A stretch of 64,000 nucleotides of DNA, from the IMG/VR virus record IMGVR_UViG_3300027708_000057, positions 10,354 through 74,353 of that record. The stretch is one strand, 5' to 3'. Position 1 is the stretch's first letter; every line of letters begins with the position of its first letter. Below the pieces are notes generated by a model. It searched no databases. It saw only the letters and a program-made list of their open reading frames with translations, and was not told the origin of the DNA. This document shows positions 3,628 to 64,000 of the stretch, piece after piece. This DNA comes from a virus. Position numbers and translations under genes: made by a program.

Positions 3628-5019
3628 ATGAAGCATAAAACAAATATTGAAGACGAGGATACCATTGAAGATATCTCCGAAAATACATTACTTTCTCTTG
3701 ATGAGCTTGCAGGAATTGCAAAGGCAATTGCGGAAGCCAAAGGTAAGAAGAAAGATGATAAAGATAGTGATGAGGAAATAGATGCAAAGCTTGGTCCTAA
3801 GGATGAAGCTAAAAAGTCTAAGTCTAAAAAGATTACATCTGACGAAGATGAAGATAATTCAGATGATGAAGATGATGAAGATGAAGAAAATTCAGATGAT
3901 GAAGATGAAGAAAATTCAGATGATGAAGATGATGAAGATGATGAAGATGACGAGAATTTAAATGAAGATGAAGAAAATTCAGATGATGAAGAAGAAGCTG
4001 AAAAAACTAAACAGTTGAAGCAAACTGGTTTGTTTAGTGATGCTGATATTAAGAAAGTCATTATTACCCTTAAACTAATTAAGGATGAGGAAGAAGTTAG
4101 CCAAGAACAAAAAGACTTGGTTGTTTCAGTATTTCTCAAATTAGTTGGTTTAGTTACTGGTGATGAAGATGTATTCGAAAAGCTTAAAAAAACTATAAAG
4201 AGTGCCGAAGAAAATTCAGAAAACAAGAAGTCTAAGAAAGAAGAATCCATCAAAGTTGATCATTCTGATATCACTCGTCTAGTTGAATCTGAAGAAGGTC
4301 TTACAGAAGAATTCAAGGAACGTGCTACTATTATTTTTGAAGCAGCAGTTCTTTCTAAGGTTTCTGAAATTAGATCTAATCTTGAAGAAGAATATGAAAC
4401 TCGTTTGAGTGAAGAAACTGAAACTATTAAAGATAATCTCATTGAAAAGATTGATAATTATCTCACTTATGCAGTTGAGGCTTGGGTAGAAGAAAACAAA
4501 GTCGCCATTGAATCAAGTTTGCGTACTGAAATTGCAGAGAACTTCATTACTTCTTTAAAATCTGTATTCGTCGAACATTATATTGAAGTGCCTGAAAGTA
4601 AGGTTGATCTGTTTGCTAATCTAGAAGCAGAAGTAATCAAGCTTAAAAAAGATGTACGTGAAGCTGAACGAATTTCTGAATCCTTAGCCGCCGGAGTAAT
4701 CACTCTGACCCGCGAAAAGATTATGCAGGAATCATTCTCTGATCTTGCTGATACACAGGTAGAAAAACTAAAGTCACTTGTCGAAGACGTTGAGTTTGTT
4801 AATGCATCTTCTTACAAAAAGAAGATTGATACAATTAAGAAATTCTATATTACCGGATTAGATAATGACACAGAAACATTGCACGAAGACTACGATGATA
4901 ATGCATATGTTAGTACTGAAACCATTGTAGAAAATGAAACCATGGATGAAGATTACGTATCTCCAATCATGTCAAGATATTTAACCGCTATCTCACGTTC
5001 AGCTAAGGCTGCAAGCTAA
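3628..5019 (+). CDS. gp22: prohead scaffold protein gp22 with long acidic N-terminal extension
   Basis: EEFKERATIIFEAAV, IDNYLTYAVEAWVEENKVAIE, FVEHYIEVP and C-terminal MSRYLTAISR. Lies between gp21 and gp23. Confidence 0.95.
   Translation: MKHKTNIEDEDTIEDISENTLLSLDELAGIAKAIAEAKGKKKDDKDSDEEIDAKLGPKDEAKKSKSKKITSDEDEDNSDDEDDEDEENSDDEDEENSDDEDDEDDEDDENLNEDEENSDDEEEAEKTKQLKQTGLFSDADIKKVIITLKLIKDEEEVSQEQKDLVVSVFLKLVGLVTGDEDVFEKLKKTIKSAEENSENKKSKKEESIKVDHSDITRLVESEEGLTEEFKERATIIFEAAVLSKVSEIRSNLEEEYETRLSEETETIKDNLIEKIDNYLTYAVEAWVEENKVAIESSLRTEIAENFITSLKSVFVEHYIEVPESKVDLFANLEAEVIKLKKDVREAERISESLAAGVITLTREKIMQESFSDLADTQVEKLKSLVEDVEFVNASSYKKKIDTIKKFYITGLDNDTETLHEDYDDNAYVSTETIVENETMDEDYVSPIMSRYLTAISRSAKAAS
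3840..3995 (+). repeat. low-complexity Asp/Glu tandem repeat (EDEENSDD) in gp22
   Basis: Repeated gaagatgaagaaaattcagatgat and gatgaagat units. Confidence 0.85.
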
Positions 5020-5077
5020 AGCAACATGAAATAAGGTTCTAACCAAAACAACAACAACAACAAAATAGAATAAAAAT

Positions 5078-6493
5078 ATGTTCAACTCAGAACAACTCGA
5101 AAAGAAGTGGGCTCCTGTACTAGAAACTCGTGATGCTCCAAAGTTCAAGGATAACTATCGTCGTGCTATCACTGCGGTTCTCCTAGAAAATCAAGAAAAG
5201 GCGATGCATGAAGAAAATTCGGCATCTAATTTCCTCAACGAAAGTAATACTATCGGTGGTTCAGCTATCGGTGGTGGTACTGGTGCAGTTAAGACTTGGG
5301 ACCCTGTCCTTATTAGTCTTGTGCGTCGCGCAATGCCAAACATTGTTGCGTATGATATTGCTGGCGTTCAGCCAATGACCATGCCTACTGGCTTGATCTT
5401 TGCTATGCGTTCTCAATACCAAGATAAAGACGGTGCTAATACAGTTGAAGCATTGTATAACACTCCTGATACTAGTTTCTCTGGTGATGACCAAGTTGGT
5501 GGCCGTCAAGGTCTTACTACTGCTATTGGTGAAACTCTATCTGGCAACTCAGCTTCTAATACAACAACATGGGTCGATCCAAATGCTGCTAATGGATATC
5601 GTACAGATGGTGGTACTGCTGCAACATATAACCTCGGTCAAACTAATGGTGCTAGCGGCGGCGCTGCTGGTGGTTTCGGTCAAATGGGTTTCACTGTCGA
5701 TAAAACAACTGTTACTGCTAAGACTCGCGCCCTTAAGGCTGAGTACACAATGGAATTGGCCCAAGACCTTAAGGCCGTTCACGGTCTTGATGCTGAAGCT
5801 GAACTTGCTAACATCCTATCGGTTGAAATCCTTGCAGAAATTAATCGCGAAGTACTTAGCACTGTTAATGCCAAAGCAAAGCTTGGTGGTATTATCTCCA
5901 ATGGAACTCCTTCTGGCTACTTCGATATCAATGAAGATGCAGATGGTCGCTGGGCCGTTGAAAAATTCAAGTCATTAATCTATCAGATTGAGCTTGAAGC
6001 TAATGCAGTCGCCAAAGCAACACGTAGAGGGAAAGGTAACATTGTTATCTGTTCATCTAATGTAGCCTCAGCACTTGCTGCCGCTGGTGTTATGGACTAT
6101 GCTCCTGCTATGTCAACCAACTTGAATGTTGATGATACTGGTAATGTATTCACAGGTATGATCAATGGTCGTCTCAAGGTGTTCATTGACCCATATGCTG
6201 ATACTGATTATATCAATGTTGGTTATCGTGGTTCTAATGCATATGATGCAGGTATCTTTTACTGCCCATATGTCCCTCTAACCATGGTGCGTGCCGTCAA
6301 TCCTGAAACCTTTCAACCAAAGATCGGCTTTAAGACACGTTATGGTCTTGTTGCCAATCCTTTCGCTGGTGGTGCAGCTTCAACTGAAACTGGTGCTAAT
6401 CGCGCCAACCCTTACTTCCGTATCTTCGGAGTAACTGGTCTTGGTCAAGGTTCTGATATTCCTACTGGCCGTAGTAACAAATACGGTTACTAA
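5078..6493 (+). CDS. gp23: major capsid protein gp23
   Basis: WDPVLISLVRRAMP, GVQPMTMPTGLIFAMR, KTRALKAEYTMELAQDLKAVHGLDAE, FYCPYVPL and FQPKIGFKTRYG. Confidence 0.99.
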   Translation: MFNSEQLEKKWAPVLETRDAPKFKDNYRRAITAVLLENQEKAMHEENSASNFLNESNTIGGSAIGGGTGAVKTWDPVLISLVRRAMPNIVAYDIAGVQPMTMPTGLIFAMRSQYQDKDGANTVEALYNTPDTSFSGDDQVGGRQGLTTAIGETLSGNSASNTTTWVDPNAANGYRTDGGTAATYNLGQTNGASGGAAGGFGQMGFTVDKTTVTAKTRALKAEYTMELAQDLKAVHGLDAEAELANILSVEILAEINREVLSTVNAKAKLGGIISNGTPSGYFDINEDADGRWAVEKFKSLIYQIELEANAVAKATRRGKGNIVICSSNVASALAAAGVMDYAPAMSTNLNVDDTGNVFTGMINGRLKVFIDPYADTDYINVGYRGSNAYDAGIFYCPYVPLTMVRAVNPETFQPKIGFKTRYGLVANPFAGGAASTETGANRANPYFRIFGVTGLGQGSDIPTGRSNKYGY

Positions 6494-10216: not shown

Positions 10217-10699
10217 TTATTTTAGATTGTAGATATTTCCTATATATGCATCAAACTCTATATGATGCTTTCTAAAAGAAAGCGTTAACTTCTTTTCTAA
10301 ATGTTCAGCTTCATATTCCCATGGATATTCAGATGTATAAACTATATCTTTTTCAAATCTTTCTTTTTTCCATTTAGTATGTTTTGAAAAAAATACAAGT
10401 TCTCTTTTATCAAATTGTTTTACATGAACCATTTCATGAGCAAGAGTTCTAATAGTTTCATACGGAGACATATCAGCATTCAACTGAATTATATATTTAG
10501 AAGGATTGATTTTATTACTATAGTTATAACATTCACCATAAGCTTTTTCCTTCTTAACTAGATTATTCACAATCTTAACTATAATATCAATATTGTGTTT
10601 GTTTGGTAACAACTGATTCAAAAAATAAACAGATGCCCTAGATAAACACTTCTTGAGAAGTTTATCATTAGAGCATCCGTATATTTTGAGATTAATCAT
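10217..10699 (-). CDS. HExxH zinc metallopeptidase-like protein
   Basis: RTLAHEMVHVKQ...PWEYEA. Confidence 0.8.
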   Translation of the reverse strand: MINLKIYGCSNDKLLKKCLSRASVYFLNQLLPNKHNIDIIVKIVNNLVKKEKAYGECYNYSNKINPSKYIIQLNADMSPYETIRTLAHEMVHVKQFDKRELVFFSKHTKWKKERFEKDIVYTSEYPWEYEAEHLEKKLTLSFRKHHIEFDAYIGNIYNLK

Positions 10700-10701
10700 T
10701 A

Positions 10702-11775
10702 TTATGCATACGCCATGATTAGCCGAGTAAGATCATCATCTTTAATAGAAACTCCGGCAGCGACAGCACCACCGGCAATAGCAAGACCTCGGGATAATTT
10801 GCGAAGATTGGCGGATTGTTTAGAGTTGCCTTTACGAAGTAATTCAACTACATGTTTACGTTGAGCTAATGTTAATTGTAGACCATCTTCTAACTCCATA
10901 TCTCCTACAATCTTATCCATGAAGTCATAAATCTCTTCTACTGTTGGATCAATGTCAATGATAAATGCTCTTGTACGAAGAGCTTTATCTGGATCTAATT
11001 TATCAAGAGACATATTAGAAATAAATATAATCTTTCCAGTAAATTCAAAATATCTAGGAATCATCCCAGCATCAAGAATTTCATCATCTGTCATTGTATC
11101 TGGATCAACGACGTTCTTACCCATCTTATTCCATACGAGCTTGCGTTTTTTCTTAGTATCTGTTGCAGCTTTTAGAATATTACGTCCTTCTGTATCCCCA
11201 AAGACATCATCTGAATCATCGAATAGAATAATTTTATCCTTATATCTGAATAACAGTGAATATAGACCAGCAGCCGAAGCAGAACCTGTATTTTTGAAAT
11301 ACCCCTTACCATCCTTAAGCCCCATGGAATGTAGGACTTTTTCAGTTGTGTGAGTTTTACCGGTATTGTGATGACAAATACCATTTGCTGTAAAATATAG
11401 ATGATCGGCTGAATCAATTTCAACATCATAATAATCCGAAACAGAATCTGAAATTATTATATTAATAATTTTCACATAAGATCCATCTTGCGTCATCACT
11501 TCATCCCCAATTACTAAATCTCTTACTTGTAAACTTCCTTTACTTGTAGTTAATAGATGTACATCCGAACATTTAATAATTCGATCATCTTCAAATTTAA
11601 CCAATGTATCTTTACCAGGTTTAATAACAAATGATACAATCTTTGAACTTCCAGAAGGAGTATCGATTTTTATATTTAAGGAAGAAATATCATAAAATTT
11701 GAAATGTTCTAGATAATCGCCATACAATTTTTCTGTAAGGTCTTTAATATCTTGTATTGTGTTAAGTTTTTTCAT
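10702..11775 (-). CDS. split-intein C-precursor: IntC (137 aa) fused to the C-terminal 220 aa of a P-loop/AAA-type ATPase
   Basis: Intein blocks KCSDVH and YYDVEI...YFTANGICHHN, then T(+1)GKT. Walker B IILFDDSD, IIFISN and ALRTRA follow. Confidence 0.92.
   Translation of the reverse strand: MKKLNTIQDIKDLTEKLYGDYLEHFKFYDISSLNIKIDTPSGSSKIVSFVIKPGKDTLVKFEDDRIIKCSDVHLLTTSKGSLQVRDLVIGDEVMTQDGSYVKIINIIISDSVSDYYDVEIDSADHLYFTANGICHHNTGKTHTTEKVLHSMGLKDGKGYFKNTGSASAAGLYSLLFRYKDKIILFDDSDDVFGDTEGRNILKAATDTKKKRKLVWNKMGKNVVDPDTMTDDEILDAGMIPRYFEFTGKIIFISNMSLDKLDPDKALRTRAFIIDIDPTVEEIYDFMDKIVGDMELEDGLQLTLAQRKHVVELLRKGNSKQSANLRKLSRGLAIAGGAVAAGVSIKDDDLTRLIMAYA
11365..11775 (-). mobile_element. IntC fragment of atypically split intein
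   Basis: Starts at Met without a Cys1 block A. Ends HHN with Thr as +1. Confidence 0.9.
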
Positions 11776-11805
11776 TGATTAAATTTGATTTGGTCTCTAT
11801 GATGT

Positions 11806-11813
11806 TATTTATA
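11806..11813 (-). promoter_or_regulatory. late promoter for the IntC-ATPase gene
   Basis: TATAAATA on the - strand, 30 nt upstream of ATG 11775. Confidence 0.75.
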
Positions 11814-11919
11814 TATTCCTAACAATCCTTCATTACATCTTCTAATAAAGAATTTTAGTACTTCAACCCATCCGAATATAACAATAAAAGAAACAAATAA
11901 TATAAAGATATTTAATACT

Positions 11920-12804
11920 TTATTCCATAGTAGCATTAATTTCCGTATCTGCTGATAAACAACCCCCAACACCAGATACAAATATTGCGTTAGACGCCCC
12001 TGATATTGTTAATTTAAGGAGATGTTCTAAGTCTGCCAACTGTTGTTCAAACGTAAGTTTATCAATCTTAGTTTCAAGAGTATCAATATCTTGAATATCT
12101 TCATAAGTTTCTTTTGAAGAACCTTTAGTAATCTTACCTGTAACGATACCAATAGAATCTGTAATATCATCAAGATCCTTCATAATATTTTGAAGTTGTT
12201 TTGGTGTGCCTGTCCATTCATAATCAACACCATTCTTAACGATTTCCTTTGAATATGTTGTAAGAAGATAATCAAAAATCTTAATTCCAGGTGATGCATA
12301 TTTAGCTCTTACATCCCCTTTGCTTGCGCCTGGACCAGAAATCATATCGAGTATACCAGAAAGAATATCTTTTGGTGTATCTCCTCTAGCTTCATTCAGA
12401 GGAATTCCATCAGGCATTGTATTAATTTCTCCAGTATAACCGTTAGCTGATATAATATCTGCAATAACAGGAAGTGTCTTTATAAGCGATACTTCTTTAT
12501 CAAACTCTATATGATATGGTCTGGCACTTTCTCCATTCCAGAAATCAACAGATTCTAAACCACTTAATCCGATAGAATTGGATAACGACCAATTGAATCG
12601 GATAGATTTACTATCTTTAGTACTATAAAACCGAATACCTCGACCCTTACCAGACTCGTTTTGATATACTTCGACCCCGGCAGATTTAAAGAATAATAAT
12701 CCGGTTTTCTTTTGAAGATATTTTGTAATGATCAGACCAGCCTTCTCAGCTGAACTTGAAGTCATTGCTTCGACAATACATGGTTTGAAACTTAAATTGC
12801 TCAT
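11920..12804 (-). CDS. split-intein N-precursor: 281-aa ATPase N-extein plus 13-aa IntN
   Basis: Ends AIFVSGVGG|CLSADTEINATME-stop. Joining to TGKT rebuilds Walker A SGVGGTGKT. Confidence 0.92.
   Translation of the reverse strand: MSNLSFKPCIVEAMTSSSAEKAGLIITKYLQKKTGLLFFKSAGVEVYQNESGKGRGIRFYSTKDSKSIRFNWSLSNSIGLSGLESVDFWNGESARPYHIEFDKEVSLIKTLPVIADIISANGYTGEINTMPDGIPLNEARGDTPKDILSGILDMISGPGASKGDVRAKYASPGIKIFDYLLTTYSKEIVKNGVDYEWTGTPKQLQNIMKDLDDITDSIGIVTGKITKGSSKETYEDIQDIDTLETKIDKLTFEQQLADLEHLLKLTISGASNAIFVSGVGGCLSADTEINATME
11923..11961 (-). mobile_element. IntN fragment (CLSADTEINATME)
   Basis: Intein block A (CL..DT.I) immediately followed by TAA. Confidence 0.88.
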
Positions 12805-12812
12805 ATATGTTA

Positions 12813-12820
12813 TATTTATA
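12813..12820 (-). promoter_or_regulatory. late promoter for the IntN-ATPase gene
   Basis: TATAAATA on the - strand, 8 nt upstream of ATG 12804. Confidence 0.75.
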
Positions 12821-12832
12821 TATTGAGAAGAA

Positions 12833-14230
12833 TTACATCTTAAAATCCTTGAAATTACCTTTAGGTTTGGAACCTAGTATAAATGGGGTTTGCTTTACAT
12901 CTGGTAATGCTGGTGCAGAATCATTCATGATATTAGCTGTAGGATCGGCAATATCATAAAGCCGCATTTTGCATCGTTCTATACCAACAGTGAATCTTCG
13001 GTTTTCAGCTAAACTATCATAACGATTCTTCAACTGCTTAAACATTATTTGATTCATTTTTTCTAATTGTTCTGTAGAAATAATAGATAAAAACAAATCT
13101 ACAGTAAAAACAAGTCCGATTGATTCACTAACATCTGTTAATTCTGTATCCGATGCTAATTGAGATCCCCGGTTTGACTGAGTTGCGCTCCAAATTGGAA
13201 CATTAAATTCTACAGCAAGACCGCGAATTTCTTCTGCAATAGATTTAATTAAACCATAAGTACCGACGCTTCCAGATACACCTCCTTTAATTCTTGAAGA
13301 TGCGCAAATATTCAAATAATCAATAAATATGAGTTCCGGTATAAAGTTTTTCTTTAGTCTTAATTCTTGAAGTAATGCTCTGAAATGTCCAACATGAGCC
13401 GCAGCTGTTGGATATTCCTTAATAATCAATTTACCATGAGTTTTAGATTTTATTCCTGCGACTTTTTTTGTAAATGAATCTTTAGATAGATTAAATATCT
13501 GTTTAATATCAACATCGAATAAATTAGCATCTATACGTTCTGCTATTTTTTCTTCACTCATTTCCATTGTAATATATAATACATTTTTACCTGCAGCTAA
13601 TGCAGCGGAAGCAAAATGACACATTACAAGACTTTTCCCAACTCCGGTTCCCGCCATGAGTACGGAAAGAGTTTTCTTAGAAATTCCTCCATTCGTGATT
13701 TTATTAAGTATTTCAATATCAAACTTGATTTTCTCTTCATGTCGATGATAGAAATCATAACGAGCTTCTCCATCCTCCAAAAAATCATGTCCAACATTCG
13801 TATCAAATGAAACTGATAGAGCATTTGATAAAATCTCTGGTATAGATCCAGTCGCAAGAGTTTTATCAGAGCCATCAATAATTTCTACAGATTTCATGAT
13901 GGCTAGATTTATGGCTCTATCTTTACACCATTTTTCCGTTTCTGTAAGAAGCCAATCCATATCAACCTGAGTCTCTTCTGATAATAATTTGATGGTATGA
14001 AGGATTTCATTTCTATCTTGCCGATTAATATGATTTGAAGATCTATAATCAATATCTAGTGTAGACGAATTCGGAAGCTTGTTATACTTCGAGATAAAAT
14101 TAAGAATCAATTCATATATTACTCGATATTGATTAGAAAAATAATCAAGTTTTAAATGAGGAATTGCCTTTCGTACAAATGGTTCATTATGGCATAGATT
14201 ATTAAGTATAATTAGTTCTAGATTTTCCAT
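12833..14230 (-). CDS. gp41: replicative DnaB-like helicase gp41
   Basis: MAGTGVGKS, VLYITMEMSEE, LIIKEYPTAAAHVGHFR, IFIDYLNIC and WSATQ. Confidence 0.97.
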   Translation of the reverse strand: MENLELIILNNLCHNEPFVRKAIPHLKLDYFSNQYRVIYELILNFISKYNKLPNSSTLDIDYRSSNHINRQDRNEILHTIKLLSEETQVDMDWLLTETEKWCKDRAINLAIMKSVEIIDGSDKTLATGSIPEILSNALSVSFDTNVGHDFLEDGEARYDFYHRHEEKIKFDIEILNKITNGGISKKTLSVLMAGTGVGKSLVMCHFASAALAAGKNVLYITMEMSEEKIAERIDANLFDVDIKQIFNLSKDSFTKKVAGIKSKTHGKLIIKEYPTAAAHVGHFRALLQELRLKKNFIPELIFIDYLNICASSRIKGGVSGSVGTYGLIKSIAEEIRGLAVEFNVPIWSATQSNRGSQLASDTELTDVSESIGLVFTVDLFLSIISTEQLEKMNQIMFKQLKNRYDSLAENRRFTVGIERCKMRLYDIADPTANIMNDSAPALPDVKQTPFILGSKPKGNFKDFKM

Positions 14231-14324: not shown

Positions 14325-14627
14325 TTAAGAAGAAAGTTTACCAATTTTGAAATCATTACAAAGAATACTATTCAAAATATTACCCATGTGTTCTTTAAAC
14401 TCTGGATTCTTTTTTAGAGATTCCTCCGAAATATCAATTGGAGTTTCGATAATTTCATAATCAAATGAAACTCTCAATTGTTTTTTCTCTTCATGAAACT
14501 TAACAGATCCATATTTGTAGATAACATCTGTATATTTACCTTTAATAATTTGAACATGGTACTGATTTTCAGAATCAATACTTTCAATTAGTTTGTAATC
14601 AACAGTTTCACGTAAGTTCATCTTCAA
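14325..14627 (-). CDS. gp40: gp40-like head vertex assembly chaperone
   Basis: Lies between uvsX and gp41. Motifs GKYTDVIYKYGSV...SFDYEII...MGNIL. Confidence 0.6.
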   Translation of the reverse strand: MKMNLRETVDYKLIESIDSENQYHVQIIKGKYTDVIYKYGSVKFHEEKKQLRVSFDYEIIETPIDISEESLKKNPEFKEHMGNILNSILCNDFKIGKLSS

Positions 14628-15687
14628 TGACTTCAGCTGGTTCTACTTTATCAAATGCTAACAAATCTTTCAAAGATATAGTAAAGTGTTTTTTAACGGC
14701 TTGTTTAAAATCTGTCACATTAAAAATTGTATCTTCCCAAAACTCCTTAGTCATTGTTGCAGCTACTCGAAGATTTCCTGTAAGGGCTGTTTGAGTTTTT
14801 GGATCAAATGCGTAATACCATCCTTGTTTTTCAGACTTAACATATCCTAACTCTTTTGCCACATCAAGGAGTCCTGAGTATTTCTCAATACCATTTTTCC
14901 AAGAAATAGAAATCGGAATTTTAGATTTTTCTTTAACAAACCTAGATTTTTCCACATTAATAACGAAATTATATCCAGTAATATCGGTCCCGAATTTTTC
15001 TTGCTGACGCCCAATGAAAAAGATAGAATTTGCCCCATAATAATTTCCAGTTCCCCCGCTCATAATATCTTTCGGGTATAAGGATTGTTCTTTGTATGTA
15101 TGATTTACTACAATTAGAGGAATATCATTAATTTCCAAATATGGAACGATCATTCGAAAAAGACTTTTCAACGCCTTTGCCCTCGTCATATCTCCTACTG
15201 ATTTTTCTGCTAATGTATCTTCGATTTCCTTTTTACTAGCCACGTTACCTACGGAATCTATAATAATAATGACTTTATCGGCCCGATTGATATTCTCTAA
15301 TTGTCCAACTAAATCGAATTTCAGTTCCTCTAAATTCTTCACAGGAATATGCAGTACTCGATTTAGATCAATTCCACAACTAGTAAAATATGATTGAGGC
15401 GCACCAAATTCTGTATCATAGAACATCAAAATCGCATCTTTATCTTTTTTAAGATACGCGGAAGCAATAATTAAAGAGTATAGACTTTTTAGATGCTTAC
15501 TTGGTCCAGCAAATGTAGTTACGCCAGATGTTAACCCTCCATCAATATCTCCTGATAATGCCACATTTAGCATTGGAATTCCTGTTGAAGTGAAATCTTT
15601 GATTCCAAAGAATTTGGAGTCAGCTAGTACATCTGCTTCTTTGATCTTACAATTTTTTTTTAATTTTTCTAGTAATGAATTTGACAT
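14608..15687 (-). CDS. uvsX: RecA-like recombinase UvsX
   Basis: LNVALSG, FAGPSKH, FYDTEFG, IDSVGNVASKKE, DMTRAKALKSLFR and VEKSRFVKEK. Confidence 0.97.
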   Translation of the reverse strand: MSNSLLEKLKKNCKIKEADVLADSKFFGIKDFTSTGIPMLNVALSGDIDGGLTSGVTTFAGPSKHLKSLYSLIIASAYLKKDKDAILMFYDTEFGAPQSYFTSCGIDLNRVLHIPVKNLEELKFDLVGQLENINRADKVIIIIDSVGNVASKKEIEDTLAEKSVGDMTRAKALKSLFRMIVPYLEINDIPLIVVNHTYKEQSLYPKDIMSGGTGNYYGANSIFFIGRQQEKFGTDITGYNFVINVEKSRFVKEKSKIPISISWKNGIEKYSGLLDVAKELGYVKSEKQGWYYAFDPKTQTALTGNLRVAATMTKEFWEDTIFNVTDFKQAVKKHFTISLKDLLAFDKVEPAEVIEDELT

Positions 15688-60568: not shown

Positions 60569-60976
60569 TTACTTCTTCCAATTATCTATAACTGATTTAA
60601 AATAGTCATCAGATTCCTCCAAAGAATCATTGGATTGTTTATTATCTAGTTCTAATCCTTCAATCATTAATTCCAATTGATTATAAATTAGTTGATCACA
60701 ATAGACCTTCTTGAGTCTTATATCAGCTATAGTTTCAGATTCAATCGCAGTTGAACTTAATTTAATACATGAACTATTTTCTATTACTGGAGGAACCAAG
60801 GTAATTATACTTTTCTTACTCTCTTGATCATAAGATTTAATAAATTGTAAAGGTGAATGTAAAATAATCCTTTTATTTTCGTCAAACTCTACTTCTCCTA
60901 TTAATTGTCTGCCAGATATAGTTGTAAACACTCTAACATCAAGTTTATTAACATATTCTAAAAGTTCTTTACTCAT
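60569..60976 (-). CDS. conserved hypothetical (Sm-like fold?) between uvsW and gp55
   Basis: FTTISGRQLIGEV...LHSPL. Conserved position. Confidence 0.55.
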   Translation of the reverse strand: MSKELLEYVNKLDVRVFTTISGRQLIGEVEFDENKRIILHSPLQFIKSYDQESKKSIITLVPPVIENSSCIKLSSTAIESETIADIRLKKVYCDQLIYNQLELMIEGLELDNKQSNDSLEESDDYFKSVIDNWKK

Positions 60977-62874
60977 TATGGTAGATCTATTTCAAAAATT
61001 TTATAATCAAATTGTTCTCTATTGTATATATCAATTCTTTCTTTGGCATGTTTCATAGTGAAGTTTTTCTTTGATTTCCATGAGAAGTTATCGGATATAT
61101 CATAAAGAGTTGTTGATTTACCGTTATCGGATTTTCTAAGACCTCTTCCAATTGATTGAAGAACCCTTACTTGAGATTTAGTAGGAGCTGCAAAAATAAT
61201 AGTATGAATATTTTTTAAATTCGTTCCCGTTGCAAAAACCACAGATGCCAATATGATACAATTACTTTCTTTATCAGCAATAGCTCTAATTTCTTCTCTT
61301 GTCTTTGCATTGACTTCTCCGGATACATAAAAGATTTTTCTATCGGGATAATTTATTGAAGCTATATCACATACCTTTTTATATAGAGGTTTCCCGTGAT
61401 CTTCAATCCGATTGAATAAAACTAATGTATTACCCTTTTGATCTATGGCTAACTTAGTGATAAAATCATTTCTTCCAACATGACTTATAATAGCATTGAT
61501 TTCATCTTGATATTCCATTTTTGATACAATCTTTTTAAGTTCATTATTATGATTGAGAACAAGACATCTAATTTTCAATTGAGCAATTGTATCAGAATCC
61601 ATTAACTCTTTTGTTGTAATAACTCTATTGACTGGACCAAAGTTACCAACAAGAACTAGTTCATTACATTTAGCTCCATCAAGAGTACCTGTTGTGCCAA
61701 TTCTATATTGAGCGTTGGTTAGATTATTCATGATAGTATTAAGACTTTTTGCGACTGCGAGATGTACCTCATCACAAATTGCCATACCAAATTTCAAGAA
61801 TTGATTTCGGGGTTGTGTATGGATGGATTGCCACGTTGAAATTAAAATTCTTTGTGAAACATCTAATTTCTCTTGACCTGAATAAATCAAATGAATTTCA
61901 GATTCAACATCAAAATTGTCATCACTTGAACTATAATCTTCAAAGTCTAACTTCATTTGATGACAAAGTGAAACTGATGGCACAATAATTAGTATTTTTT
62001 CATTACAATTATCTAGATACCATCGAATCAAAGTATAGATAATTAGACTTTTACCAGAATTATGATGAAGTATTCCATTTTGATAATAGCATTCTTTATC
62101 ATAATCTAAACTAAAATCATACCAATCTTGAGGAGGTACTGGAATAATTTTAGATATTCTTGAATTTTTATGATCTAAAATATCGTGTACTTTTAAAGAT
62201 TCTAGTGTAACAAATTTACCTTCTTTTTGAACCTGATGATAATCTGATCCTATAGTTTCAGTACCATCGCTAAACTCAATCTTTCTTCCCGGACCATATT
62301 TTTTGTATGCTCCTATAACAGATTTCCATCCATCTGGAGTCGGAAATTTTATAATAATTCCATTGTTATATTCATTATACAATTCCTTAAACTTATAATA
62401 ATAAGGAGATTTATTGATTTCTGCAATGATTTCTGTATTACCATCAAGACAAGCCGTAGGACTTAAAGTTAAACTTCGACCTTCTTGAATCGCATGAATG
62501 AATGCATCTAATTGGTAATCACGCATTTCCACAGGTTCTCCTCGGACTGTAAGTTTTAAAGACTTAATGTAATCTATAAGAGATTGTCTAGTTATGACAG
62601 GTTTATTACTAACTTCTTTATCAATATCAAATGTATAATTTCTAACTTCACAAAACTTAATAAGTTCGAAAAGTAGTCCATACGGAAGTAATCTTGTTTG
62701 AGCTGAAAAGATAGAAATTTTTCCTGACCATAATTTAGCTTTAAACTTTGGATGAAATCTAGCTCCCGGTACTTCAAATGTAAAGTATTCATTAATTTCC
62801 TGAATAATGCTAGAATCATCTGAGTTAATTCTCAAATGAACTTCATTAACTTTTGTAATTTGAATATCTTTCAT
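60976..62874 (-). CDS. uvsW: SF2 helicase UvsW with mini-intein
   Basis: RDYQ, SPTA|intein|SGKS, DEVH, TTGT and QSIGRGLR. Confidence 0.96.
   Translation of the reverse strand: MKDIQITKVNEVHLRINSDDSSIIQEINEYFTFEVPGARFHPKFKAKLWSGKISIFSAQTRLLPYGLLFELIKFCEVRNYTFDIDKEVSNKPVITRQSLIDYIKSLKLTVRGEPVEMRDYQLDAFIHAIQEGRSLTLSPTACLDGNTEIIAEINKSPYYYKFKELYNEYNNGIIIKFPTPDGWKSVIGAYKKYGPGRKIEFSDGTETIGSDYHQVQKEGKFVTLESLKVHDILDHKNSRISKIIPVPPQDWYDFSLDYDKECYYQNGILHHNSGKSLIIYTLIRWYLDNCNEKILIIVPSVSLCHQMKLDFEDYSSSDDNFDVESEIHLIYSGQEKLDVSQRILISTWQSIHTQPRNQFLKFGMAICDEVHLAVAKSLNTIMNNLTNAQYRIGTTGTLDGAKCNELVLVGNFGPVNRVITTKELMDSDTIAQLKIRCLVLNHNNELKKIVSKMEYQDEINAIISHVGRNDFITKLAIDQKGNTLVLFNRIEDHGKPLYKKVCDIASINYPDRKIFYVSGEVNAKTREEIRAIADKESNCIILASVVFATGTNLKNIHTIIFAAPTKSQVRVLQSIGRGLRKSDNGKSTTLYDISDNFSWKSKKNFTMKHAKERIDIYNREQFDYKIFEIDLP
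62059..62451 (-). mobile_element. 131-aa mini-intein in UvsW Walker A
   Basis: CLDGNTEI...GSDYH...WYDFSL...YYQNGILHHN|S. Confidence 0.93.
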
Positions 62875-63346: not shown

Positions 63347-64000
63347 TTATTGTTTTGTCAACCATGCTTTATAGTCTAATTTGACTAGATTATTAAAACA
63401 ATAAAAATATCCACCAACTTTTTGCGGAGCTCCTTCTAAAGATGTAAGGTTATTATCATCACAATAAAAATCTCTACCAACTTTTTGCGGAGATCCTTCT
63501 AAAGATGTAAGGTTATTATTATCACAATTAAAATTTCCACCAACTTCTTTAGGAGCTCCTTCTAAAGATGTAAGTTTATTACTAGAACAATAAAAATTTC
63601 CACCAACTTTTTGCGGAGCTCCTTCTAAAGATGTAAGGTTATTATCATCACAATAAAAATATCCACCAACTTCTTTAGGAGCTCCTTCTAAAGATGTAAG
63701 GTTATTATCATCACAATTAAAATTTCCACCAACTTCTTTAGGAGCTCCTTCTAAAGATGTAAGGTTATTATCATCACAATTAAAATTTCCACCAACTTTT
63801 TGCGGAGCTCCTTCTAAAGATGTAAGTTTATTACTAGAACAATTAAAATTTCCACCAACTTCTTTAGGAGCTCCTTCTAAAGATGTAAGTTTATTACTAG
63901 AACAATTAAAATATCCACTAACTACAATATCAGATAGATTTGGTAATATATATTTAGATTTAATTCTTATATCTCCTTTATATATCCCATTAACTAGTTC
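63347..64000 (-). CDS. second LRR-array protein, 3' part (runs off the window; absent from the ORF track)
   Basis: Open frame ELVNGIYKGDIRIKSKYILPNLSDIVVS + 8 x 21-aa repeats + NNLVKLDYKAWLTKQ-stop. Flanks identical to ORF 6798-8651. Confidence 0.93.
   Translation of the reverse strand, partial: ELVNGIYKGDIRIKSKYILPNLSDIVVSGYFNCSSNKLTSLEGAPKEVGGNFNCSSNKLTSLEGAPQKVGGNFNCDDNNLTSLEGAPKEVGGNFNCDDNNLTSLEGAPKEVGGYFYCDDNNLTSLEGAPQKVGGNFYCSSNKLTSLEGAPKEVGGNFNCDNNNLTSLEGSPQKVGRDFYCDDNNLTSLEGAPQKVGGYFYCFNNLVKLDYKAWLTKQ

Follow-up and report, generated by a model that had tools for sequence, protein, structure and literature searches.

A conserved S1-type split intein with a 13-residue N-terminal part in the P-loop of a NrdC.10-like AAA+ ATPase of a freshwater T4-like phage

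The window analyzed here is a stretch of 64,000 nucleotides (nt) of the IMG/VR virus record IMGVR_UViG_3300027708_000057 (74,353 bp; CheckV completeness 41%). Its source is a freshwater T4-like phage, and the sequencing runs holding its sequence are freshwater and lake metagenomes. Two open reading frames (ORFs) on its minus strand together encode an ATPase and, at their facing ends, the two parts of an intein. The upstream ORF (N-half; 11920–12804; 294 amino acids, aa) has the C-terminus ...NAIFVSGVGG, followed by CLSADTEINATME, the N-terminal intein part (IntN), and a TAA stop. The first 137 aa of the downstream ORF (C-half; 10702–11775; 357 aa) are the C-terminal intein part (IntC) and carry SDVH (block B), YYDVEI, and HLYFTANGICHHN (blocks F/G). 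This part ends with HHN and is followed by TGKTHTTEK and then by KIILFDDSDD. Joining the exteins (281 + 220 aa) yields a protein of 501 aa containing SGVGGTGKT and KIILFDDSDD. A previous reading made from the letters alone (the sequence-only reading) had proposed this pair of ORFs, and both were found exactly at the coordinates and with the ends it gave; its predicted ligation product (SGVGGTGKT in an ATPase of ~501 aa with a Walker B motif) also held, as the 281 + 220 aa are colinear with uninterrupted homologs. The features of the locus are given below in the 5′ to 3′ direction of the minus strand; L004 and L177 are the two further loci at which a split allele was found in its DNA context.

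12813–12820 (−): TATAAATA, putative promoter motif 8 nt upstream of the N-half ATG; same arrangement in L004.
11962–12804 (−): N-extein, 281 aa, the N-terminal domain of the ATPase through ...FVSGVGG (first half of Walker A); 36–58% identity to the N-terminal 280–300 aa of uninterrupted homologs of ~500–520 aa, the alignment stopping exactly at GG.
11923–11961 (−): IntN, 13 codons, CLSADTEINATME; a 13-aa IntN is present in eight further N-halves, all with C1 and L2, and CLSADT is invariant in the five closest.
11920–11922 (−): TAA stop of the N-half gene; the position of the stop is matched in L004 (TAG) and L177 (TAA).
11776–11919 (−): spacer of 144 nt, its promoter-proximal ~100 nt being what remains, in decayed form, of a free-standing nuclease-like gene's 3′ end (translated match to the intervening ORF of L004).
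11806–11818 (−): GAATATATAAATA, with the motif TATAAATA, which resembles T4 late promoters and is located 30 nt before the ATG of IntC; sequence and spacing identical in L004; putative promoter.
11365–11775 (−): IntC, 137 aa (start Met included) with the C-terminus ...GICHHN; matches to CatC and VidaL, conserved blocks B, F, and G, dN/dS (ratio of nonsynonymous to synonymous substitution rates) 0.12.
10705–11364 (−): C-extein, 220 aa, with Thr+1, GKT, Walker B (ILFDDSDD), and AAA+ core and lid; phrog_1250 E 5.5e-23, 66–80% identity to homologs, AAA+ fold, T4 NrdC.10 E 5e-16.

Scanning viral and metagenome contigs for the C-half yielded 160 relatives. At ~150 related loci, the ATPase is encoded by a single uninterrupted gene of ~500–520 aa that is colinear with the predicted spliced product. 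The sequences corresponding to the two exteins follow one another in a single frame, 0 nt apart at precisely the predicted junction, at 78 of 80 IMG/VR loci and at 73 of the 74 metagenome loci holding both halves. Finding such uninterrupted ATPase homologs had been suggested by the sequence-only reading as a check, and their zero-gap fusion means that the two-ORF pattern exceeds chance. The uninterrupted homologs read ...FVSG[KR]GG[VI]GKTHTTEK, and in a deeper branch of them Walker A is GRGGTGKT. Deleting the 13 + 137 residues from the halves of the window leaves ...FVSGVGG-T-GKTHTTEK, without any indel compared with the uninterrupted homologs; thus, the intein borders are exact. The intein allele has Thr+1 where intein-free alleles mostly have Val or Ile, as expected because it needs a nucleophile at this position. 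The uninterrupted alleles L169–L176 (GRGG/TGKT; the slash marks the position of an intein junction) already have Thr at the position equal to +1 of the intein alleles, which could be the footprint of intein loss or a ready-made homing site. At other loci (L007, L050–L054, L063, L069–L071, L087, L092, L103, L109, and L121), a weak IntC-like match (22–26% identity) lies ~1–2 kb upstream of the ATPase gene, in a position that is occupied in the window by the gene for a gp41-type helicase. A DNA search of the phage collection gave no match, nor did a scan of viral contigs with the N-half alone, the peptide patterns being too specific.

The residues required of a class-1 intein are present. Cys1 in CLSADT provides the block A nucleophile, S70 and H73 of block B (CSDVH) are invariant in five alleles, and blocks F and G (YYDVEI...HLYFTANGICHHN/T) are invariant as well, with a His-Asn end followed by Thr+1. 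Altogether, C1, L2, the block-B His, HHN, and T+1 do not vary among the five closest alleles. Comparing the window with L004, dN/dS was 0.12 for IntC (at dS 0.96), 0.115 for the C-extein, and 0.26 for both the N-extein and IntN, the latter value resting on only 13 codons. Both intein parts and both exteins are, thus, under strong purifying selection. When IntC was compared with sequences in the PDB, it matched CatC (6dsl_B; E 4e-5), gp41-1, and VidaL (6vgv_A; E 0.04); the same search with the 30-aa tail of the N-half returned a chance match only.

The split allele is not confined to the window. Nine N-halves with a 13-aa IntN were found (P0005, which is that of the window, P0006, P0007, P0008, which is that of L004, P0021, P0187, P0191, P0220, and L177), in all of which IntN begins with CL, while the identity of their N-exteins drops to 30%. 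In L004 (= L086; 81% identical to the window), the 13-aa IntN (CLSADTAIVATQD) is followed by a stop, an insert of 1281 nt, and an IntC starting at the same residue; in L177, the third DNA context, it is followed by a TAA stop and a spacer of 93 nt. A search with IntC of 1.84 billion representative proteins gave 252 matches at E ≤ 0.001. Among the matches listed, at least 14 clusters (50% identity) of C-halves of the ATPase start with a long IntC, and four proteins (P0023, P0024, P0033, and P0068) contain a contiguous intein of 148–151 aa at the same GG/C...HHN/TGK site. The split form (13 + 137 = 150 aa) aligns to these contiguous inteins without loss, the break falling into the turn after the second strand. 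With an IntN of 13 aa and an IntC of 137 aa (more than 100) flanking a break right after strand 2, the position, as read from these alignments, corresponds to what PMC13014065 terms the S1 site. Stop and restart recur in the window, L004, L177, and many protein clusters, as they should in a naturally split intein. The S1-type naturally split intein is, thus, real and conserved, and it is very probably functional. The atypical natural split with Thr+1 put forward by the sequence-only reading was found again across alleles (13-aa IntN, 137-aa IntC, Cys1, His-Asn, Thr+1).

Some relatives deviate from this scheme. The N-half P0198 (JGI; 306 aa) ends ...AGRGG/CLDPMTEIELA, which would be an IntN of 11 aa if this end is a real stop. 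In the N-halves P0196 and P0204, a 13-aa IntN-like core (CLRSSEMLNIRTT, without the usual D/T motif) continues into a tail of 19 aa (32 aa in total), a form that may result from a lost stop codon or represent a decaying allele. Four C-halves of the same ATPase (P0039, P0050, P0066, and P0156) read HHN/T[YFT]xxE and have no GK following +1, an indication that this P-loop has a second insertion site for an intein, between GK and T and three residues farther downstream.

Whether the two intein parts can associate was addressed with a structural model of the complex, for which the last 40 residues of the N-half and IntC residues 1–150 were used as input, together with three controls. The interface score (ipSAE) was 0.74, compared with 0.00 for the best control; of 80 solved complexes, 58 attain the mark applied to this score, as do 2 of 110 mismatched pairs. 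Contacts agreed between runs to at least 78%, and the partner confidence (predicted local distance difference test, pLDDT) was at least 54. The modeled interface comprises residues 279–294 on the IntN side and, on the IntC side, residues 1–11, 33–38, 67–74 (block B), 113–117, 128–131, and 135–138 (HHN, T+1), with IntC 1–11 pairing as a strand with IntN 284–291. The model supports binding of IntN to IntC, although VidaL and Cat complexes have been solved, so the result may reflect likeness to those rather than binding by this particular copy.

The two ORFs are, very probably, the halves of one NrdC.10-like AAA+ ATPase gene whose P-loop is broken by a class-1 mini-intein of 150 residues that is split after residue 13, and whose products would be joined by trans-splicing. 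According to this scenario, each half of the ATPase would be translated separately. The 13-residue IntN (strands 1 and 2) would dock on the 137-residue IntC and complete the Hedgehog/intein (HINT) fold. Cys1 and Thr+1, with the His of block B and the His-Asn end assisting, would then perform protein trans-splicing, yielding an ATPase of 501 aa in which Walker A (GVGGTGKT) is intact. Alternatively, the halves might associate via their intein parts into a noncovalent two-subunit ATPase, or be cleaved without being ligated. Some split inteins do mostly give cleavage side reactions (up to 25% C-cleavage for PolB16; PMC13014065), but Walker A would then remain interrupted by 150 residues, and the conservation of Cys1, His-Asn, and Thr+1, at a position where intein-free alleles mostly have Val or Ile, points to selection for ligation. 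Association or cleavage without ligation is, thus, considered improbable.

The 144-nt spacer (11776–11919) contains seven stops in the frame of the N-half ORF and stops in the other two frames, too. In L004, the corresponding insert holds an ORF of 413 aa (from its ATG) between the ATPase halves. It shares 34% identity (E 3e-22) with the ORF that separates the halves of a split intein in the large terminase (TerL) of the window phage. No Pfam or PHROGs family was assigned to this ORF at default thresholds, and a PDB sequence search with it found no match; in the Atlas, its score was 0.89 for a cluster with T5orf172 in 45% of the members. When the spacer was translated, positions 11777–11854 matched residues 383–409 of the L004 ORF with a score of 79, which none of 300 shuffled sequences reached (mean 28, maximum 44). 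The match contains an in-frame stop and a frameshift and falls within the last ~36 residues of the L004 ORF. A preceding FGW.EV match in the spacer lies in a different frame and was reached by 3 of 300 shuffles. Local alignment of the nucleotide sequences of spacer and L004 insert was not above shuffles, and homology is visible only once translated. The translated match identifies ~100 nt of the spacer as the remnant of a decayed nuclease-like gene, from its 3′ end.

Such a history agrees with the "fractured gene" model (Dassa et al, 2009; PMC2677866), including its step of endonuclease loss: a free-standing nuclease gene would have inserted into a contiguous mini-intein, interrupting it in the turn that follows strand 2, and this gene would have been retained in L004 and would have decayed to ~100 nt in the window. 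A free-standing gene between the halves, as the model describes for homing endonucleases, is found in L004, with a weak assignment of its nuclease domain, and only as the ~100-nt relic in the window. As for expression, the 13-nt block GAATATATAAATA and its spacing of 30 nt to the IntC ATG are the same in L004, with TATAAATA at 11806–11813 (−) in the window. Independent late transcription of the C-half may be inferred from this arrangement.

The same break in other genomes also bears on the notion that the two ORFs result from an assembly or sequencing error, or that a contiguous intein is restored at the RNA level (intron, frameshift, or read-through). Nothing was found that favors this notion. 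The full-length DNA contigs X1 and X2 match the whole stretch, but they may be the source of the window and are, thus, not independent. The break recurs in L004 (with an insert of 1281 nt), in L177 (with a spacer of 93 nt), and in numerous protein clusters that stem from other samples, and a separate low-depth sample (X4) tiles 11132–12027 without any difference, including the spacer (stretches of the window not covered in runs X4 and X5 carry no meaning). In addition, there are stops in all three frames of the spacer, no joints were seen in the contigs of any run, and no Rfam family, introns included, was found in 10500–13000. An artefact or joining at the RNA level is, thus, effectively refuted and extremely unlikely. 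The sequence-only reading had come to the same view, that this is not a single sequencing error, and X4, L004, and L177 confirm it. It had argued from the stops and from the motif in the spacer; the former are indeed numerous, whereas the latter is weak when taken alone (see below).

Several observations weigh against an active split intein. Splicing is a prediction made from the sequence. The Pfam intein models stayed below cut-off, Hint_2 with E 0.0046 and 17.8 bits (cut-off 28.4); Intein_splicing reached 13.6 (cut-off 35.8). IntC by itself has no block A, and its PDB matches to solved inteins were significant. Few loci carry the intein allele (2 of about 155 that have a DNA context, IMG/VR and metagenome collections combined). 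TATAAATA is not enriched in the window (15 matches compared with 12.6 expected), and the evidence that the L004 ORF encodes a nuclease is weak (Pfam T5orf172 at E 0.094, under the cut-off). Finally, the sole contig from an RNA library spans 11637–11873, which neither proves transcription nor defines the start of a transcript.

The rarity of the allele and the decay of the nuclease gene in the window could also mean that the locus is a dead pseudogene, in which a nuclease gene broke an intein-containing ATPase whose ORFs are no longer joined or functional. L177 (IMGVR_UViG_3300035661_000023, a 97-kb contig; split ATPase at 3959–6040) would add to this, as it appears broken under the standard code: five in-frame TAG codons interrupt it, four in the N-half and one in IntC. 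However, these positions align with Ser, Ala, Gly, Asp, or Lys of relatives, and the stop after IntN is TAA. All interruptions being TAG and the true stop TAA suggests recoding rather than decay; in L177, TAG seems to be read as a sense codon. Moreover, halves and intein parts are under strong purifying selection (dN/dS 0.12–0.26 at dS ~1), none of the catalytic residues has been lost in the five closest alleles, and a 13-aa IntN is still found where extein identity is down to 30%. A dead locus is, thus, very unlikely, and a functional split intein is retained as the best explanation.

The host protein is a T4 NrdC.10-like AAA+ ATPase with a fold of the MoxR/NorQ/CbbQ type. The C-extein is 34% identical to T4 NrdC.10 over 155 aa (E 5e-16) and matches phrog_1250 (E 5.5e-23). 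The AlphaFold model of the uninterrupted homolog P0009 (pLDDT 76) retrieved NorQ in Foldseek (5e-8), then CbbQ, p97, and Rpt. GxxGxGKT (after the predicted splicing) and a Walker B motif of the form hhhhDD, as expected for an AAA+ protein, are both present. Compared with T4 NrdC.10, the aquatic homologs have an extra N-terminal domain of ~280 aa, for which no family match was found. The upstream neighbor of the split ATPase is the gene for a DnaB/gp41-type helicase (12833–14230; phrog_19, E 4e-111), and an ORF of 359 aa (14608–15687) lies farther upstream.

Further inteins and repeats were observed in the phage. A UvsW-like helicase (60976–62874, minus strand) contains a contiguous mini-intein of 131 aa in its P-loop (62059–62451; SPTA/CLDGNTEI...GILHHN/SGKS), which shares 27% identity with the split IntC (E 8e-8) and has CatC as its best PDB match. 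That it is an allele of VidaL was rejected, as it is no closer to VidaL (E 0.02) than the split intein is. An ORF at 63347–64000 (minus strand) runs off the window and consists of leucine-rich-repeat-like tandem repeats of ~20 residues (NCxxNxLTSLEGAPxxVGGxF). Upstream of the window, at L003 (G000:C1:1299-4556), the large terminase is encoded in three pieces in an AceL/GOS-TerL-like arrangement. The first piece has an IntN of 45 aa after RQSSK and is followed by a T5orf172-like ORF of 346 aa; the second has a long IntC at its start, an internal cis mini-intein, and an IntN of 30 aa at its end; and the third starts with a long IntC.

A short IntN is accessible by peptide synthesis, and atypically split inteins are therefore sought for N-terminal labeling and semisynthesis. 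More natural examples have been called for, the natural minimum still being given as 15–16 aa (PMC10189870, PMC13014065). It is tentatively suggested that the family described here is a natural panel of trans-splicing inteins working with an IntN of 13 residues (possibly 11 in one allele). If so, this would be the shortest natural IntN, at or near a limit so far reached only by laboratory-evolved splits, and would show how little of strands 1 and 2 suffices for high-affinity capture. The panel comprises at least nine diverged 13-aa alleles, together with cis-spliced relatives for comparison. Should these inteins be fast and extein tolerant, they would be directly usable in peptide-based protein semisynthesis, and many diverged natural variants would be useful for orthogonality and engineering. 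The contiguous relatives at the same site provide a natural before-and-after pair for intein splitting, and L004 with its inserted nuclease-like gene, together with the relic in the window, documents steps of the "fractured gene" model at the S1 site. Biologically, one more P-loop intein in an intein-rich phage is unsurprising; it is conceptually incremental but of interest for intein engineering.

Among natural split inteins, the IntN of PolB16 (15 aa) is referred to as "the shortest characterized to date" (PMC10189870) and as "record-short" (PMC13014065), followed by VidaL (16 aa; PMC13014065), AceL-TerL (25 aa; PMC13014065), and GOS-TerL (37 aa; PMC11766414); that of Cat, an engineered consensus, has 30 aa (PMC13014065). 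In the literature searched, which did not extend to intein databases or the primary VidaL papers, no report of a natural 13-aa IntN was found, and the expectation of the sequence-only reading that 13 aa would be at or below the shortest known agrees with the 15 aa of PolB16 (PMC10189870, PMC13014065). The artificial S1 split of Ssp DnaB M86, with an IntN of 11 aa (PMC13014065, PMC3620165), shares the position of the break and an IntN of peptide length but is engineered and laboratory evolved. AceL-TerL, GOS-TerL, and Cat (PDB 6dsl) are likewise atypically split and belong to phage genes, CatC is the best PDB match of IntC (E 4e-5), and the window phage record itself carries TerL split inteins of the AceL/GOS-TerL kind. 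However, these are S2 splits after the first helix with an IntN of 25–37 aa, whereas the intein of the window keeps this helix in IntC. The "fractured genes" of Dassa et al (PMC2677866) resemble the locus in that loss of the endonuclease gene leaves adjacent halves (their step III corresponds to the window), but they involve canonical splits with a long IntN and GIY-YIG or Vsr-like endonucleases, as opposed to an S1 split and a weakly T5orf172-like gene.

Closest in kind are VidaL and PolB16. VidaL (PDB 6vgv/6vgw; credited to Burton et al, 2020, in PMC13014065) is a natural atypical split at S1 after strand 2, depends on Cys1, has a long IntC, and is weakly similar in sequence (E 0.04); the C-extein of its crystal construct starts with SGK, taken as a P-loop, too. 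However, its IntN has 16 aa and its +1 residue is Ser, compared with 13 aa and Thr+1 here, and at ~25% identity the two are not the same allele. PolB16 OarG is also a natural S1-type split with a very short IntN (PMC10189870) but has Ser1 and Ser+1, is cysteine independent, has an IntC of 168 aa, and resides in a PolB gene from a sheep gut metagenome, whereas the intein of the window has Cys1 and Thr+1, consists of 13 + 137 aa, and interrupts an AAA+ ATPase. The S1 split type is, thus, already known from VidaL and PolB16, and the gain is two residues and no new principle. Because an IntN of 15 aa (PolB16) and one of 16 aa (VidaL) have already been described, the intein of the window is best regarded as a further S1-type atypically split intein with a slightly shorter IntN.

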